Assembly: GCF_036507355.1 (NCBI RefSeq)
Contig: NZ_AP027877.1
Strand: one strand, 5' to 3'
DNA: 64,000 nucleotides
DNA from: Escherichia coli
GTDB taxonomy: Bacteria; Pseudomonadota; Gammaproteobacteria; Enterobacterales; Enterobacteriaceae
Part shown: in pieces, positions 7,721 to 20,141 of the stretch
Layout of the letters: each line of letters starts with the position of its first letter
How positions within the stretch are numbered: position 1 is the first letter of the stretch
Made by a program: the position numbers and the translations under genes
Notes under the pieces: model-generated
The model's database searches: none
What the model was told of the DNA's origin: nothing
Seen by the model: the letters and a program-made list of their open reading frames with translations, nothing else

Positions 7721-8128
7721 CTCCCGCTTCAGCCGTTTCGAATTACACAGCCACAGGGTGATCACCAGTAACAGGATCGCAGCCGAGTAGATCAACACAT
7801 CCAGTGGCGATTTATGATCGACGATGATCAAGCGCACAATGGCGGTGATCCCAATATAGACAAAGTAACGTAGCGGGAAGTGAAAACCGGACTGAAAGTA
7901 CTTCACAATCAGCGCGATAAATTCGAAATAGAGAAAGTAAACCACCAGTCCTTCTACCAGCTCATATTTGCTGGTTTGTTCTGGCGCGAACAGCACATCA
8001 GCCAGATGCACCGTTTCTTTGCCGAGGAAGACAACCAAAATCAGGCCGAGGCACAACAGGCCAAGATTGAGTACGGTCTGCAAAATGGTGGAGATAAACT
8101 CCACGCGCGGACGAGAGAGTGACGTCAT
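7718..8128 (-). CDS. psiE: phosphate-starvation-inducible inner membrane protein PsiE (136 aa)
   Basis: ORF track; [38 protein letters not shown]... Confidence 0.95.
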
Positions 8129-8257
8129 AGCAGTACCTCCTTCACAGTGGCGAGCTTCCTGTATAACGCAAAAATGTGACGGAGATCTATATTTTTTGTG
8201 TATGTTTTGTTCAACCTGGATTTGGAGCGCGCCTCCACCAAAGCCGGATATACCTAC

Positions 8258-8300
8258 CCGTAGGCCGGATAAGCCGCGCCTGGCGGCGCATCCGGCAAGA
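8258..8300. repeat. REP element pair
   Basis: GTAGGCCGGATAAGCCGCGCCTGGCGGCGCATCCGGCAAG. Confidence 0.75.
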
Positions 8301-8397
8301 CAAACCGCACCAAAGCCGGTAATTCAAAAATCACCCATTCAGGTGATTCCCAGCCACCAGCAATGCGCGAAAAATCGACAATGTTCCTCTGGAACAA

Positions 8398-8676
8398 ATG
8401 AAACGTAACCTGATAAAGGTGGTAAAAATGAAGCCTTATTTTGCTGCTTTGATGTTATCAGTCTCTGTTCTTCCTGCTTATGCTGGTCCGCTCGGTACTG
8501 CTGATAAAGCCGACCTACCGCAAAGCAATGTCTCCAGCCCAATGATGGCCCAGTCGCTCAGGCAACCAGACCTGCAACCGATATCGACGGACAGGAAGAC
8601 AGAATGTTTTCGCCTTTACACACCAGATCGCAAACCGGGGGTGAACTGCGTTCCTGATGGCTCGACAGGCCATTAA
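8398..8676 (+). CDS. yjbT: small putative secreted protein (YjbT-like, 92 aa)
   Basis: ORF track; N-terminal signal-peptide-like MKPYFAALMLSVSVLPAYA; position between psiE and yjbH matches the small yjbT gene as I recall it. Start could be the internal MKPYF Met (8428). Confidence 0.5.
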   Translation: MKRNLIKVVKMKPYFAALMLSVSVLPAYAGPLGTADKADLPQSNVSSPMMAQSLRQPDLQPISTDRKTECFRLYTPDRKPGVNCVPDGSTGH

Positions 8677-8722
8677 GAATGAAGGTGCCAGTGAGTGCGA
8701 AAACTGGCACCTTTCCCATGAC

Positions 8723-10819
8723 TTAGCGGAAATTGACGCTACGGTCGCTGGTCATGTCATACAACTGGAACTTACGCCCAAGTTGCTGACCACCGTCACG
8801 CGTCAGCGGCGTCCAGCCAATCGCCGCACGGCTGCGTGTCGGGCCAGACGAGAAGAGATCCAACGGTACCGAGACATACACGCCTTTGGTGAAGTCCCCT
8901 TCGCCGTACTCCTCTTTCGAAACATTCGTGATCGTGGCATAGCCACCCACCACCACACCACTGTCAAAGCGTTTGGCGATCTCCAGCGTGCCGCCTTTAT
9001 CCCCTGCCAGATACTGCCCGACGCTGGCTTTAACTAACACATCCTGAGCGAAAGATGGCGTCCAGTAGGCGGTCAGATGTCCGGTTTTCACGCTGTAATC
9101 GGTGAATTTCATCATATCTTTCGCGCTACGCCAGTCGCGCTGTTTAACGTAGTTGGCATCCAGACCAAACGCCCAGTTGCTGTCCAGCGGGCGATACAAC
9201 ACCTCAGCCCCCGCACCGCCAAACATGGTTTCGAGATAGCCGCCGTAGACCTGACCGTAGAAGCCGTTGCCCAGATGCTGGAAGTAGTTGGCTTGCAGGT
9301 TATTCACATAGACATCATTCTGCACATACTCGCGCACATGGGTACGCACGCGCGGTAAGTGCGAGTCCTGCGGCGGATTGGTGTAGTTAAACTTGTCGTA
9401 GTTGTTAGCCAGGTTAGCAAACAGGCTGCCGGTGGTCAGCAGATGGTCCGTCAGCCACAAATCTGCCGTTCCCATCACGCCCAGCTGATACATGTAAAAG
9501 TTTTCCGGGCCACCGACCGACTGGTTCAGCACCGGATCGATATGGAAATCAAAGCGTGATTTGTCGATATACCAGCCCTGCTCGGTGGACTGCGGAACCA
9601 CTGGCTCGACGCGTTTTTGCGCCAGCGTCGTTTCGTGGCCCAACGGCTCTCCGGCGAGATGATTTTTCAGGCTGGCGACATCGGTTTCCGTCGTCACCTG
9701 CGGCATGTTAAGGCGATTTTCCGTAATGCGGATCGTTTTGATCCCATCCGGCAGATCGTTCATCACGATCCGATTAGCACGGATGATCCCTTCGAGCGAA
9801 TCACGATATTTCACCTGCTCGCCGGTAACATACAGCGTATCGCCTTTCGCCTGGATCTGTGGATCGGCAAGTCCAGCATTGTATTTCAACAGCGTTAACT
9901 GATTCGCCACCACCGAATGCTGCAAAATGGCATCCTGCGGCTGCGGTTGATATTGCGGGCGGGCGTTATCGTTGTAAGACGGGCGCAGATCGTTAAAGTT
10001 GGTGCGCAACGTAACGCCAAACATAAAGGTGTTGCCACGTTCATAGCTAAGGTTAACGTCGGCCCAATCGGTAACGCGATAAATCGCCCCGACGTTAAAC
10101 TTACTTTTTTGCTCCAGCTTCCCGGCAAAATCCTGCTGATAATTATTGCCTTCATACTCCAGTTTCAGGCGCAGCGGTTGCCAGGGCGTCTGGTATTCCA
10201 CGCCGCCAAACAGTGAGGCAGGACCGTGGAACATCTGGCTACCGTCGATAGATCCCGCCTGTTTGTAGCTGTTATCGCGATAGCAATATTTATCACTGGC
10301 TGAACAGAGCGGATTTTTCACATTACCGCTGGTGCCCAGATATCCCCAGCCCAGGCCGAGCGTAAAATCGAACGGCCCCCAGGCTTTGCTGGCAACAAGA
10401 TATTCCGCATCAAACAGCCCCGTACCGCCGATATCCCGCGCACCAACCGCCACTTGCGGCAGCCAATAACTCTCTTCCCACAAACGCAGTTTGAGATCGA
10501 AGGCTTTATCTTTATACGTTTGATCGCCAGAGAACGCTTCGACGCTGCTGTACTGCCGGGTGCGCACGTCGGTGTAGCGCAGCGTTGTTTCCAGCCACGG
10601 GAAGAGTTGCACTGAAGCTGAGTAATAACGGTACTGATCGTTATCGCGATAGTTCAGACTCAACTCCCCTTCCCGTGCCATACGCGCGGTGGGCGTTTGT
10701 AATAATCCTACGCCCCCGAAATCCGACTGCGACGGACCAATGGGCGCAGGATATGTTTCGCCGTAGCAAGCTGTGCTAATGCCCAGCGCCAGTAAGCTAA
10801 GCAGATGTCTTTTTTTCAT
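8723..10819 (-). CDS. yjbH: YjbH, outer-membrane beta-barrel lipoprotein of the yjbEFGH exopolysaccharide locus (698 aa)
   Basis: ORF track; [24 protein letters not shown]... lipoprotein signal; last gene of yjbEFGH. Confidence 0.9.
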
Positions 10820-15232: not shown

Positions 15233-16582
15233 ATGTCTGAAATTGTTGTCTCCAAATTTGGCGGTACCAGCGTAGCTGATTTTGACGCCATGAACCGCAG
15301 CGCTGATATTGTGCTTTCTGATGCCAACGTGCGTTTAGTTGTCCTCTCGGCTTCTGCTGGTATCACTAATCTGCTGGTCGCTTTAGCTGAAGGGCTGGAA
15401 CCTGGCGAGCGATTCGAAAAACTCGACGCTATTCGCAACATCCAGTTTGCCATTCTGGAACGTCTGCGTTACCCGAACGTTATCCGTGAAGAGATTGAAC
15501 GTCTGCTGGAGAACATTACTGTTCTGGCAGAAGCGGCGGCGCTGGCAACGTCTCCGGCGCTGACAGATGAACTGGTCAGCCACGGCGAGCTGATGTCGAC
15601 CCTGCTGTTTGTCGAGATCCTGCGCGAACGCGATGTTCAGGCACAGTGGTTTGATGTACGTAAAGTGATGCGTACCAACGACCGATTTGGTCGTGCAGAG
15701 CCAGATGTAGCCGCGCTGGCGGAACTGGCCGCGCTGCAGCTGCTCCCACGCCTCAATGAAGGCTTAGTGATCACCCAGGGATTTATCGGTAGCGAAAATA
15801 AAGGTCGTACAACGACGCTTGGCCGTGGAGGCAGCGATTATACGGCAGCCTTGCTGGCGGAGGCTTTACACGCATCTCGTGTTGATATCTGGACCGACGT
15901 CCCGGGCATCTACACCACCGATCCACGCGTGGTTTCCGCAGCAAAACGCATTGATGAAATCGCGTTTGCCGAAGCAGCAGAGATGGCAACTTTTGGTGCA
16001 AAAGTACTGCATCCGGCAACATTGCTACCCGCAGTACGCAGCGATATCCCGGTCTTTGTCGGCTCCAGCAAAGACCCACGCGCAGGTGGTACGCTGGTGT
16101 GCAATAAAACTGAAAATCCGCCGCTGTTCCGCGCGCTGGCGCTTCGTCGCAATCAGACTCTGCTCACTTTGCACAGCCTGAATATGCTGCATTCTCGCGG
16201 CTTCCTCGCGGAAGTTTTCGGCATCCTCGCGCGGCATAATATTTCGGTAGACTTAATCACCACGTCAGAAGTGAGCGTGGCATTAACCCTTGATACCACC
16301 GGTTCAACCTCCACTGGCGATACGTTGCTGACGCAATCTCTGCTGATGGAGCTTTCCGCACTGTGCCGGGTGGAGGTGGAAGAAGGTCTGGCGCTGGTCG
16401 CGTTGATTGGCAATGACCTGTCAAAAGCCTGCGGCGTTGGCAAAGAGGTGTTCGGCGTACTGGAACCGTTCAACATTCGCATGATTTGTTACGGCGCATC
16501 CAGCCATAACCTGTGCTTCCTGGTGCCCGGCGAAGATGCCGAGCAGGTGGTGCAGAAGCTGCATTTTAATTTGTTTGAGTAA
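15233..16582 (+). CDS. lysC: lysine-sensitive aspartokinase III LysC (449 aa)
   Basis: ORF track; MSEIVVSKFGGTSVADFDAMNRSADIVLSDANVRLVVLSASAGITN... Confidence 0.98.
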   Translation: MSEIVVSKFGGTSVADFDAMNRSADIVLSDANVRLVVLSASAGITNLLVALAEGLEPGERFEKLDAIRNIQFAILERLRYPNVIREEIERLLENITVLAEAAALATSPALTDELVSHGELMSTLLFVEILRERDVQAQWFDVRKVMRTNDRFGRAEPDVAALAELAALQLLPRLNEGLVITQGFIGSENKGRTTTLGRGGSDYTAALLAEALHASRVDIWTDVPGIYTTDPRVVSAAKRIDEIAFAEAAEMATFGAKVLHPATLLPAVRSDIPVFVGSSKDPRAGGTLVCNKTENPPLFRALALRRNQTLLTLHSLNMLHSRGFLAEVFGILARHNISVDLITTSEVSVALTLDTTGSTSTGDTLLTQSLLMELSALCRVEVEEGLALVALIGNDLSKACGVGKEVFGVLEPFNIRMICYGASSHNLCFLVPGEDAEQVVQKLHFNLFE

Positions 16583-17656: not shown

Positions 17657-17688
17657 TAAAAGCTGATGACCTGAAATAACGCCGGGCA

Positions 17689-18489
17689 TCACGCCCGGCG
17701 CATTACCGTCTGGTACAGTAAGCTATCCAGTTTCTTAACGTCCCCTTCTCTACTATCCGGTAACACAGGCGGAATTTCCCCACGCGCCAGTTCCGCATGG
17801 ATAAACGCATGTAGCAATGGACGGCGTGGGCCATATTCCGCTTCACCCGCACGCTGTTTACGTTCCAGTAATTCATCTATTTCTGCGCGTAAGGCCGCAT
17901 CCAACTCACTTCCCGCCAGCAATTCGGAAAAACGCATTGGCGGTACGCCTTTTCCCGCTTCAACCCAACGCACGGCCAGCAACGGACGCAGCACGTAAAA
18001 GTATTTTTTCAGTCGAACTTCATCGCCCTGCAAATATCCGCGGAAGTTTTTCTGCGCCATCGAATAGTAATGCCAGCGCGCACGCAGCGGAGAAAACCAC
18101 GTTGGGACCATTGCCTTAAGCGCCGTTATCGTTTCTTCATCTTGTTGATAGACCACCGGAGAATCCAGCCATTCTATCAGCGTCGGGTTCGCGCCTTTCA
18201 ATAATCCCAGCGCCTTACGCCACTCCCAACCGGAAACATCTAACTCGTCGTCGATGGGCAGCTCAATAACATCGCGCGGTGACTCTACTCGCAGATACCA
18301 TTCCAGCGGGTGAACATACAAAAACCGTACATCGTAGTCGCTGTCGGGCGAGGCAAATCCCCAACCGCGACTCCCCGATTCACAGGCGTACAGTACTTTC
18401 ACATCATACCGCCGTTCAATTTCTTTTAACTGCTGCGATACCCTTTCGCGCATCGCAGCACTGACTCCATTTAATGGCATGTTACTCAC
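17689..18489 (-). CDS. Pol-beta-superfamily nucleotidyltransferase (266 aa), uncharacterised
   Basis: ORF track; ESGSRGWGFASPDSDYDVRFLY = GS-x9-DxD nucleotidyltransferase motif; start overlaps stop of upstream SPFH gene by 4 bp. Confidence 0.7.
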   Translation of the reverse strand: MSNMPLNGVSAAMRERVSQQLKEIERRYDVKVLYACESGSRGWGFASPDSDYDVRFLYVHPLEWYLRVESPRDVIELPIDDELDVSGWEWRKALGLLKGANPTLIEWLDSPVVYQQDEETITALKAMVPTWFSPLRARWHYYSMAQKNFRGYLQGDEVRLKKYFYVLRPLLAVRWVEAGKGVPPMRFSELLAGSELDAALRAEIDELLERKQRAGEAEYGPRRPLLHAFIHAELARGEIPPVLPDSREGDVKKLDSLLYQTVMRRA

Positions 18490-19613
18490 CCTTTGATATT
18501 AACCAACCCGTGCAGAACCTGATCCAGACCGCCAAATACAGAGATGTTATCAATCCGCTCAGCCACTCTCTCCAGCGTTTCCAGCTCTTTTAAACGCAAC
18601 GCTACCGGATTGTTCTCCATGACTTTGGCGGTGTTCAGTAACGAGCGCGTCGCTGCCGTTTCTTCACGTCGGCGAATCACATTCGCCTGCGCAGATTTCT
18701 CTGCCTCAACCAGCTGCGCAAGGATATTTTTCATATCGCCAGGCAGGACGATATCTTTCACCCCTAATGAAGCAATCTCCATACCGAACGGCTTCATGCG
18801 CGATTTCACCTGTTCGCTGACAACGTCATCAATGACCTGTTTATCTTCCAGCAATTCATCCAGCGTACGCGTACCTACCACTTCACGCAGTGCAAATTGC
18901 AATTCCCGATACAAATGATCAATCGGCTTCGTTAACTGACTAAATGCTAATAACACGTCGCTGTAGCGCCAGTTAGCCGCGAGGTTAATCCGCAGATTGA
19001 CCTTATCTTTCGTTAAGATTTCTTGCCCGCTGACTTCCAGTACCTGCAAGCGGGTGTCAACCACTTCAGCTTCAACCAGATGGTTAATTTTCCAGTACGC
19101 GGTAAGCCCCGGCGGTAACAGCGCCTGCGTTTCACCATCGATTTTCAGCACGCCTACATGCCAGGCCGGAACCTGCACCGTCAGTATCGCATCGCGGCCT
19201 TTAACAACTCCTTTGCGCCGTGGCTGTAATACCGCATTCATCACCTCCGTTTGTACCGGGACTTGCTGCGTATTCATCCGCACCAGCGTCAAATCATCCT
19301 CTACACGCCAGTACAAACGACGCGTTGATGGCGGCAGGATCTCCAACAAAATACCGTCCATATACAACACCCCGGCTTCAGTCTCCGACAAGTCTGCCAC
19401 CAGGCAATATTTCTCCACCCAATCAGGCTGAAAGCGGCGCAAATAATCCGCAAGCACGTCGGGAACTTCGCTACCATCCAGCGTAATCAGCAACACTTCC
19501 GGGGTATTTAACCAGGGTAAAATATGCTCGCCTGCATGCAGCACTTTGTAGTAATCGCCGTTTCTGGAGAGTAATGCCAGCTGATCTTTTCTTACGCTTA
19601 TTTTTTTAATCAT
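18486..19613 (-). CDS. SPFH/band-7 (stomatin/flotillin-like) domain protein without obvious N-terminal TM helix (375 aa)
   Basis: ORF track; C-terminal half has band-7 hallmarks (GMEIASLGVKDIVLPGDMKNILAQLVEAEKSAQANVIRRREETAA...LRLKELETLERVAERI); hydrophilic N-terminus. Confidence 0.7.
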   Translation of the reverse strand: MIKKISVRKDQLALLSRNGDYYKVLHAGEHILPWLNTPEVLLITLDGSEVPDVLADYLRRFQPDWVEKYCLVADLSETEAGVLYMDGILLEILPPSTRRLYWRVEDDLTLVRMNTQQVPVQTEVMNAVLQPRRKGVVKGRDAILTVQVPAWHVGVLKIDGETQALLPPGLTAYWKINHLVEAEVVDTRLQVLEVSGQEILTKDKVNLRINLAANWRYSDVLLAFSQLTKPIDHLYRELQFALREVVGTRTLDELLEDKQVIDDVVSEQVKSRMKPFGMEIASLGVKDIVLPGDMKNILAQLVEAEKSAQANVIRRREETAATRSLLNTAKVMENNPVALRLKELETLERVAERIDNISVFGGLDQVLHGLVNIKG

Positions 19614-20141
19614 TATCTATTCCTTGCTTAATAGCCGTCGCGGAAGCAGACACGAAGCGACAGGGGAATTCCCTTTTGCCTGTTACCCGGCATCTTTATC
19701 GGCGACGTTATCGGGGACCGCAGACTGCGCAATCCCTCATTTTTTATTTAATAAGTTACAACCAGTATTCATTTCAGGAATGAATGTGGGAATCGAACCC
19801 GTAATTGGCGTCAAAGGCTGATGGAACACGCCCGGAAAACAGCCTGGCCGTTCCTGGTGTGCCGACGGGGTTTAACCCCCTTTGTAATTCAGTATCAACG
19901 CAAAAGTGTTATTGCGAGAAGCGTGCCAGAAGTGATAAAAAATTTTAATTACATGAAAAATAAAGATTTAATAAATCATTATTGTTTGTAGGGGGAGATT
20001 TTTTCGCTAAATTTGTATCTGTATTTATCGTCAATTATCAAGAAAGATAAATATTTAAGAAGAGAACAAAGGAATATTATCAGTTCTGCTTGCAAATAAA
20101 TTCCCGTACACTGAACTATCCGATTAACAGAGGGCACCATC

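Follow-up and report, generated by a model that had tools for sequence, protein, structure and literature searches.

The window, a 64,000-nucleotide (nt) stretch of Escherichia coli DNA (contig NZ_AP027877.1), carries on its minus strand two adjacent genes, encoding an SPFH/Band-7 protein and a Pol-beta nucleotidyltransferase. An original prediction, made from the sequence alone, had taken the pair for an uncharacterised two-component system and suspected a defence or stress module. The features at and upstream of the two genes lead us to another reading. The locus is probably a reduced derivative of an RtcR/sigma54-controlled RNA-repair operon, in which a tRNA-like RNA, a Band-7/SPFH protein, the ligase RtcB and the nucleotidyltransferase RlaP are encoded in succession. 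In the direction of transcription the features are:

20015..20050, minus strand: four GATA-type boxes (TTATCT, TGATAA, CGATAA, AGATAC) at an exact 10-bp spacing, followed by an AT-rich spacer
19913..19928, minus strand: predicted sigma54 -24/-12 promoter TGGCACGCTTCTCGCA, with an inferred transcription start near 19902
19817..19893, minus strand: leader module 1, helix P1 (CTGA/TCAG) around hairpin P2 (GGGG..CCCC) and a long hairpin P3/P4, from covariation
19767..19801, minus strand: leader module 2, a T-arm-like hairpin CGGGTTCGATTCCCA with an invariant GGTTCGA loop and a hairpin ATTCATT..AATGAAT, from invariant columns
19636..19738, minus strand: leader 3' domain, a small hairpin and a long irregular stem with an apex of species-dependent length, from covariation
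18486..19613, minus strand: SPFH/Band-7 ('slipin family') gene, 375 aa, from the open reading frame (ORF) call
17689..18489, minus strand: RlaP-family (PF10127) Pol-beta nucleotidyltransferase gene, 266 aa from GTG 18489
17689..18480, minus strand: the same gene from the alternative start ATG 18480 (the RefSeq choice), 263 aa

The coordinates originally given covered the two genes and omitted the promoter, the GATA array and the tRNA-like leader (19614-20050), which are the most informative parts.

The two proteins of the operon

Both ORFs lie where they had been placed, and the description of a cytoplasmic SPFH protein and a Pol-beta nucleotidyltransferase in one operon is upheld. The operon is real and the ORF pair is not due to chance: it is preserved intact in ~1620 complete E. 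coli genomes, with ratios of nonsynonymous to synonymous substitution (dN/dS) of 0.03-0.10. The 4-bp overlap described between the genes holds only with GTG 18489 as the rlaP start. In homologous E. coli rlaP genes the RefSeq start is the ATG equivalent to 18480, which has the better Shine-Dalgarno sequence (AAAGGGTGAG) and leaves a 5-nt gap past the SPFH stop codon; the genes abut with either start.

The second protein matches the RlaP family end to end (Pfam PF10127, 'RNA repair pathway DNA polymerase beta family'; E 1.2e-96, model positions 1-248/249). The GS...DxD catalytic motif, GSRGWGFASPDSDYD, is intact as predicted and is identical in 30 of 41 orthologues; nine have one non-catalytic difference and one ORF leaves the motif uncovered. 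A sequence search with RlaP yielded no solved structure. The family was named by Burroughs & Aravind in 2016 for its linkage to RNA ligases, as recounted in PMC12776372. The RlaP enzymes of Pseudomonas fluorescens and P. aeruginosa add one or two nucleoside monophosphates to RNA 3'-OH ends, working in vitro without a ligase; both prefer damaged RNA and are required to restore tRNA that has lost nucleotides (PMC12776372). The same preprint assigns phage T4 NrdC.11 to the family, and the window protein (17692-18480, minus strand) matches phrog_14344 over its full length (E 5e-123). Close relatives of RlaP thus circulate in phage or prophage records.

The first protein contains a Band_7 domain at residues 147-318 (Pfam, E 1.1e-24). 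No membrane anchor is evident in its sequence, the highest Kyte-Doolittle 19-residue mean being 1.0, and no NfeD-like or protease partner gene was found in the operon, whose only flanking genes are yjbD and a convergent zeta-toxin-family gene. A confident AlphaFold model (62 diverse homologues; predicted local distance difference test score, pLDDT, 91) places two N-terminal beta-modules (residues ~1-140), both with helices behind them, ahead of the SPFH core and long C-terminal helices. In the sequence, a motif h-h-x-x-G-x5-L-x-PG-x-h-x-h-W occurs three times. Foldseek aligned the model with stomatin, HflK/C, prohibitin, erlin and QmcA over ~230 columns, and with major vault protein (MVP) over 424-488 columns, N-terminal modules included (E 5.5e-10 to 1.5e-8). 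Because the MVP match extends over these modules, the N-terminal region may, with low certainty, consist of SPFH/MVP-repeat-like beta-modules. There is no sign of an enzymatic fold. All solved SPFH relatives among the Foldseek matches form rings or cages, and an oligomeric soluble scaffold is therefore the natural expectation by analogy.

The family is large, with 545 clusters at E <= 1e-30. Homologues of ~520-550 aa with an additional copy of the N-terminal module occur in Gilliamella, Xenorhabdus, Providencia vermicola and Thiomargarita (loci L036-L047, L067 and L072 of our collection; gene at ~8001-9566).

Related loci with rtcR and rtcB

A scan of one genome per species gave 80 loci with full-length relatives of the SPFH protein, its N-terminal region included. 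ORFs were called in these loci, the proteins were clustered and the clusters were identified with NCBIfam. Divergently upstream of the SPFH gene, 56 of the 80 encode a 528-aa protein that is RtcR (NF038308, 819 bits against a cutoff of 650). A 408-aa RtcB-family ligase, 72% identical to E. coli RtcB, is encoded in 51, and RlaP in 40. The SPFH-RlaP pair does recur in other genomes as a unit, as the original prediction required: rlaP directly follows the SPFH gene in 13 loci, and in 27 rtcB stands between them.

The chromosomal site, yjbD/panS to lysC-pgi, is the same in Citrobacter, Klebsiella, Kosakonia, Enterobacter, Phytobacter, Siccibacter and Pluralibacter. The ancestral-type arrangement at the yjbD-lysC site consists of a leftward rtcR, the sigma54 promoter, a structured leader of ~290 nt and then, rightward, the SPFH gene, rtcB and rlaP. 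Complete operons that are orthologous to the window locus and share its synteny occur in Kosakonia, Enterobacter, Phytobacter, Erwinia and Providencia. The 13 loci with directly adjoining SPFH and rlaP genes belong to Escherichia, some Citrobacter, the Klebsiella oxytoca group, Pseudocitrobacter, Mangrovibacter, Hafnia and Lonsdalea. The three Escherichia loci are alone in lacking rtcR as well, and the zeta gene is confined to them. In the window, the ORF call showed rtcB neither between the SPFH and rlaP genes nor in their vicinity, and no rtcR at the locus. By these comparisons, Escherichia has lost rtcR and rtcB at the yjbD-lysC site and has gained the zeta-toxin-family gene.

The gene junctions offer a possible route for the loss of the ligase gene. 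In all four rtcB-containing loci examined (L007, L011, L013 and L016), rtcB ends in AAAGGATAA followed after a few bases by an ATG. The SPFH gene likewise ends in AAAGGATAA, 3-6 nt and an ATG in L007 (where both ends are seen, at 9095-9150 and 10330-10385), L013 and L016, though not in L011. Microhomology at the two gene ends could explain the repeated clean loss of rtcB, so that this short repeat could mediate recurrent, precise rtcB deletion in several genera.

More distant SPFH homologues have varying partners, among them RtcR with RtcB, a WYL regulator with two RlaP and no RtcB, and mobile-element or ParDE settings (Fic/TraG in L083, ParDE in L084). In L085-L087 (4225-13046) a distant SPFH homologue stands with a divergent WYL-domain regulator, a 742-aa RING-like protein and two rlaP genes, one of whose products has a SLATT-like tail; RtcB is missing there. 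SPFH-RlaP linkage therefore exists without the ligase.

In six loci from Beta- and Gammaproteobacterial genomes (L057, L061, L062, L076, L079 and L080), arrays of 13-21 tRNA genes (seven in L080) lie directly upstream of SPFH homologues, ~300-6000 nt before the SPFH gene (~8001). These SPFH genes often stand beside a gene for a ~198-aa HNH protein (with an IscB/Cas9-like HNH match), with RtcB nearby, which suggests cassettes of spare tRNAs and repair functions. In 16 loci of Proteus, Providencia, Lonsdalea, Xenorhabdus and Erwinia (within L020-L037; e.g. L020:4983-5897), a gene for RNase Z/BN adjoins rtcR; this could be plain synteny or could mark a processing enzyme for the tRNA-like leader.

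A predicted sigma54 promoter and GATA-type boxes upstream of the SPFH gene

The sigma54 pattern matches the window four times against 3.3 expected, which is not significant by itself. The promoter call carries weight because the element is invariant across loci, and not from the window match: the core TGGCACG-N4-T-GCAA is unchanged across 17 aligned loci, from Escherichia to Xenorhabdus. The strict pattern lies upstream of the SPFH start in 48 of the 80 loci, mostly at 308-391 nt and in Gilliamella at 515-526 nt.

Upstream of this promoter the four GATA-type boxes of the window lie at -122/-112/-102/-92. Loci that keep rtcR have them at -133/-123/-113/-103, one helical turn apart and beside the rtcR start codon, so that the window array is offset by ~11 bp relative to these loci. 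The E. coli rtcBA promoter has GATA boxes at -131/-113/-103 ahead of its own TGGCACG-N4-TTGCA. The array at 20015..20050 would, by this likeness, be an upstream activating sequence (UAS) for RtcR. The rtcBA UAS and a site for IHF are in experimental use (PMC9650030), and the activator of RtcR consists of 5' tRNA halves with 2',3'-cyclic phosphate ends (PMC7790460).

Of the RtcR/sigma54 control of the repair operon, the window thus has the promoter and the GATA array, with the rtcR gene absent at the locus. RtcR is available elsewhere: some 90% of E. coli genomes have rtcR-rtcBA at another site. The rtcR gene was counted in 4858 of 5426 genomes and the island with the two genes in 1636 of them, so that at least 65% of island-bearing genomes have rtcR. 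In the island-bearing strain 2014C-3097 an intact rtcR-rtcB-rtcA set lies ~700 kb from the island. The RtcR of the related loci shares 63% identity with its E. coli counterpart, and the two differ little in the C-terminal region. Given the rtcBA-like array and promoter, together with rtcR elsewhere in E. coli, we infer that RtcR, acting in trans, drives the orphan promoter.

A covarying leader with likeness to tRNA genes

Some 290 nt separate the promoter from the SPFH start. Over the window, ARAGORN and Rfam searches gave neither a tRNA nor a known RNA family, relaxed ARAGORN thresholds gave noise only, and the minimum free energy fold of the window leader alone is unremarkable (z -1.1). The leader is interpretable only by comparison with other loci.

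A fold of the 5' half was derived from 32 enteric loci. It comprises a closing helix GCUGA/UCAGC, hairpin P2, P3/P4 and the T-arm-like hairpin with its GGUUCGA loop; RNAalifold gave compensatory changes in 23 of 26 pairs. Two further helices were added by hand. With these, 94% of cells are paired, against 39-52% for slid partners, and 32 of 36 pairs have changes on both sides. In 500 shuffles the observed values were never reached for four of the five measures, and seven shuffles reached the count of further pair types. Pairing in helices 1-4 is 94-97%, with compensatory changes in 25 of 27 pairs. The 3' domain, which stops ~20 nt ahead of the Shine-Dalgarno sequence of the SPFH gene, retains pairing through changes on both sides in 18 of 19 predicted pairs (31 loci).

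At the position of this leader, one or two tandem tRNA-like genes occur in Betaproteobacteria, Methylococcaceae, Gilliamella and one mobile-element locus, ~270-430 nt upstream of the SPFH gene. They score 45-62 bits on the Rfam tRNA model (threshold 29), and their anticodon loops are variable or aberrant. Module 1 of the enteric leader takes the position of the first of these genes, whose acceptor strand GCUGAAU matches the enteric closing helix. The T-arm of the second gene aligns with the enteric T-arm, and module 2 appears to be its decayed remnant. In some leaders of Kosakonia, Enterobacter, Erwinia and Mangrovibacter the T-arm is still flanked by an acceptor-like helix, which shows compensatory changes, and by a 3' GCACC(A); the 5' strand of this helix is lost in the window, Citrobacter and Klebsiella. 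On this alignment, the window leader looks like a derived, decayed form of the 'b7a-tRNA' pair, and such decay would account for the negative ARAGORN and Rfam results.

The leader of Erwinia rhapontici (L027:7638-7680) begins, right past the -12 element, with a direct duplication of ~20 nt, ATAGTTACCCCGTCAACATG / ACAGTTACCCCGTCAAC.

Selection on the genes and the leader

Both genes are under strong purifying selection, with dN/dS of 0.03-0.09 for the SPFH gene and 0.03-0.10 for rlaP. These ranges include pairs within Escherichia, in which rtcR and rtcB are absent in cis, at dS of up to 0.5-0.7. Upstream of the genes, the GATA-box array of the window does not differ from that of E. coli 2014C-3097, and from the GATA boxes to the ATG ~5% of positions differ by alignment count, against dS of 0.13-0.19. 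Across E. coli we had expected higher conservation in the promoter-leader than in the genes, and this expectation failed: the promoter-leader is mostly 90-95% identical across ~1630 copies, no higher than the coding pair, which is 95-99% identical in most copies. The case for constraint on the RNA therefore rests mainly on the covariation across genera.

Comparison with described systems

The closest described system is the Band-7/'b7a-tRNA'/RtcB/RlaP RNA-repair system predicted by Burroughs & Aravind in 2016, in a survey that placed Band-7 proteins with 'b7a-tRNA' beside RtcB, as that work is cited in 10.1101/312249 and PMC12776372. As far as those accounts describe them, such operons share with the window an SPFH family with N-terminal modules, the RlaP family and a sigma54 promoter, and have the tRNA-like element in the same place, upstream of the SPFH gene. 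Unlike them, the window has neither rtcB nor rtcR in cis, has an added zeta-toxin-family gene downstream, and has tRNA-like units so decayed that tRNA finders fail to recognise them. Another SPFH protein, PaFlo8 of P. aeruginosa PA14, is encoded within the rtc locus (PMC13086221), where it and PaRlaP are embedded with RtcB, RtcA and RtcR (PMC13086221; PMC12776372). That locus is complete in ligase, cyclase and regulator, unlike the window, and the likeness of PaFlo8 lies in its SPFH domain and its rtc location.

E. coli rtcR-rtcBA shares the sigma54 promoter, GATA-type boxes ~100-130 bp upstream and the same RtcR equivalog as the related loci; compared with rtcBA operons, RlaP stands in the place of RtcA, and the E. 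coli rtcBA leader is short. In Salmonella rsr-yrlBA-rtcBA, the tRNA-mimicking YrlA RNA and the ring-shaped RNA-binding protein Rsr/Ro60 are co-transcribed with the ligase (PMC7790460; PMC9650030); the window has the SPFH protein in Ro60's place and, in YrlA's, a different RNA with no Rfam match.

At the protein level, the membrane scaffolds HflK/C, QmcA-YbbJ and stomatin have the SPFH core and C-terminal helices of the window protein. It differs from them in lacking a transmembrane anchor and any partner of the NfeD or protease type, and in its extra N-terminal beta-modules and RNA-repair context. Its possible likeness to vaults and MVP would lie in the order of parts, beta-repeats, SPFH-like shoulder and long helix, and in the small structured RNA associated with both.

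Interpretation and alternative explanations

These comparisons place a pairing that the original prediction could not assign to any described system, since RlaP, the Band-7/b7a-tRNA/RtcB arrangement and PaFlo8 have been described already (PMC12776372; PMC13086221; and, for the 2016 work, as cited in 10.1101/312249). That prediction had rightly listed RNA repair among the possible contexts. It had also named a known RNA-repair module as an outcome that would speak against a new system; the pairing matches a described RNA-repair system, so such a module is what was found. Ligase and activator, two defining components, are absent in cis, and we therefore file the locus as a variant of the repair operon and not as a member.

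In the mechanism that we propose, tRNA cleavage by ribotoxins or upon DNA damage would yield 5' halves with 2',3'-cyclic phosphate ends and so activate RtcR made from the distant rtcR-rtcBA locus. RtcR on the GATA-box array would make the orphan sigma54 promoter fire together with rtcBA, and the transcript would provide the structured tRNA-like leader RNA, the SPFH protein and RlaP. RlaP would add one or two nucleotides to the 3'-OH of nucleotide-depleted RNAs, whose function ligation by RtcB would then restore. The SPFH protein, like other SPFH proteins, may oligomerise into a ring or cage and serve with the tRNA-like RNA as a repair scaffold or cofactor, by analogy with Ro60 and Y RNA in rsr-yrlBA-rtcBA. 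The module would in this way supply accessory repair functions to RtcB. A more specific form of the proposal is speculative and, taken whole, rather doubtful: the SPFH protein and the processed tRNA-like leader might form a vault-like ribonucleoprotein (RNP) ring or cage in the cytoplasm that captures broken tRNAs and presents them to RlaP and, in trans, to RtcB, and the orphan module might be an unrecognised second member of the RtcR regulon in ~30% of E. coli, its promoter having outlived the activator gene.

Several points weigh against a reduced repair operon. Neither ligase nor activator is encoded in cis, so that all functional links to RtcB and RtcR rest on inference. The decayed tRNA-like units of the window are recognised by neither ARAGORN nor Rfam. 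The promoter-leader is no better conserved across E. coli than the coding pair, and the other support for its constraint is the one pairwise comparison of the window and 2014C-3097 against dS. RtcR binding to the GATA boxes is a prediction, and such binding is not known to have been mapped at base resolution. Deletion of PaFlo8 gave no phenotype in growth, virulence, motility, biofilm formation or oxidative stress (PMC13086221).

The pair might have been re-purposed to work independently of RtcB and RtcR, with another sigma54 activator or read-through driving it, and with RlaP and an RNP of SPFH protein and leader mending or marking RNA 3' ends (e.g. tRNA CCA), or with the leader being purely cis-regulatory. 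SPFH-RlaP without RtcB in several lineages, the WYL regulator in place of RtcR in L085-L087, the activity of RlaP on 3'-OH ends in vitro without a ligase (PMC12776372) and the ~11-bp offset of the window GATA array fit such a change. Yet rtcR is still next door in most ligase-less enteric loci, the array is of the same type as that of rtcBA, and E. coli has both RtcB and RtcR in trans; we regard re-purposing as unlikely. Less likely still is a functionless remnant left by the deletion of rtcR and rtcB, with decay yet to come. It would agree with the loss of two defining components, the degenerate tRNA-like units and the absence of the island from ~70% of E. coli genomes, and it conflicts with ORFs intact in ~1620 genomes, with dN/dS of 0.03-0.10 among Escherichia lineages without rtcR and rtcB in cis, and with the retention of promoter, GATA boxes and leader helices. 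Ligase-less SPFH-RlaP pairs moreover persist in Klebsiella, Citrobacter, Hafnia, Lonsdalea and Mangrovibacter and in the distant WYL-regulated locus.

The defence module first suspected is largely refuted by the comparative data, and we consider it very improbable. It would be a new two-component defence or toxin-antitoxin (TA)-like system, with the nucleotidyltransferase as an effector of nucleotide signalling or toxic nucleotidylation, the SPFH protein as partner or sensor, and the zeta gene as a fellow member of a defence island. In its favour, TA systems and signalling defence systems are known to include minimal nucleotidyltransferases, the neighbouring gene is of the zeta-toxin family, and distant SPFH homologues stand in mobile-element or TA contexts (L083, L084). 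However, the enzyme here is an RlaP, of a family whose characterised members work in repair, on RNA 3' ends (PMC12776372). The locus comes from an ancestral context of rtcR and rtcB, and PADLOC models gave no match for the SPFH protein or RlaP at E <= 0.01. Nor does the zeta neighbour lend the suspicion the strength once drawn from it: the gene is confined to Escherichia and convergent, and lies at a fixed, always chromosomal site amid housekeeping genes.

Taken as a reduced repair operon, the locus reveals no new kind of system, the kind being already known. The useful new points are an RtcR-binding-like array kept after loss of the adjacent rtcR, a covarying leader apparently derived from tRNA-like genes, and a minimal natural version in E. 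coli. In bacterial RNA repair, the branch built on an SPFH protein and a tRNA-like RNA is to date a comparative-genomic prediction only, and its RNA is not known to have been detected. E. coli isolates would carry its minimal natural form, with one promoter, one leader and two genes, and with ligase and activator coming from elsewhere. This form would be a convenient genetic system for the contribution of the SPFH protein and RNA, for RtcR targets beyond rtcBA and for the relevance of RlaP in vivo. The annotations of the island in E. coli go no further than 'slipin family protein', 'nucleotidyltransferase domain-containing protein' and 'zeta toxin family protein', and an RNA-repair identity would correct these generic annotations in ~1600 complete genomes.

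Genomic setting and the neighbouring zeta-toxin-family gene

The window has an Escherichia-like gene order of pgi, lysC, the three-gene island, yjbD, rluF and sorbose genes. In all 1636 of the 5426 complete E. coli genomes that contain it, the island is chromosomal and beside yjbD. Two further features lie at its downstream end:

17680..17701, minus strand: GC-rich hairpin GCGCCGGGC..GCCCGGCG followed by TTATTT, overlapping the RlaP stop codon
16721-17656, plus strand, convergent: zeta-toxin-family gene (Pfam Zeta_toxin, E 2e-40)

The zeta-family protein has a ~100-aa N-terminal extension ahead of its kinase domain and matches phrog_25145 over its full length. Its score against the PezT equivalog, 129, is far under the cutoff of 470. 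As lysC ends at 16582, only 138 nt before the gene, there is no space for an upstream antitoxin ORF. The zeta gene occurs in three of the 80 related loci, all Escherichia, and is by this distribution a lineage-specific addition unrelated to the repair operon. We considered it as the missing RNA kinase of the repair 'syntax' and rejected it, because it is Escherichia-only and convergent.

Weak Rfam terminator-type alignments span the hairpin at 17680..17701, which is the probable terminator of the operon and would be common to the convergent zeta gene. A 3662-nt contig from a metagenome-assembled genome labelled 'Collinsella sp.' (L001) encodes proteins 95-98% identical to those of the E. coli island and is probably mis-binned Escherichia.

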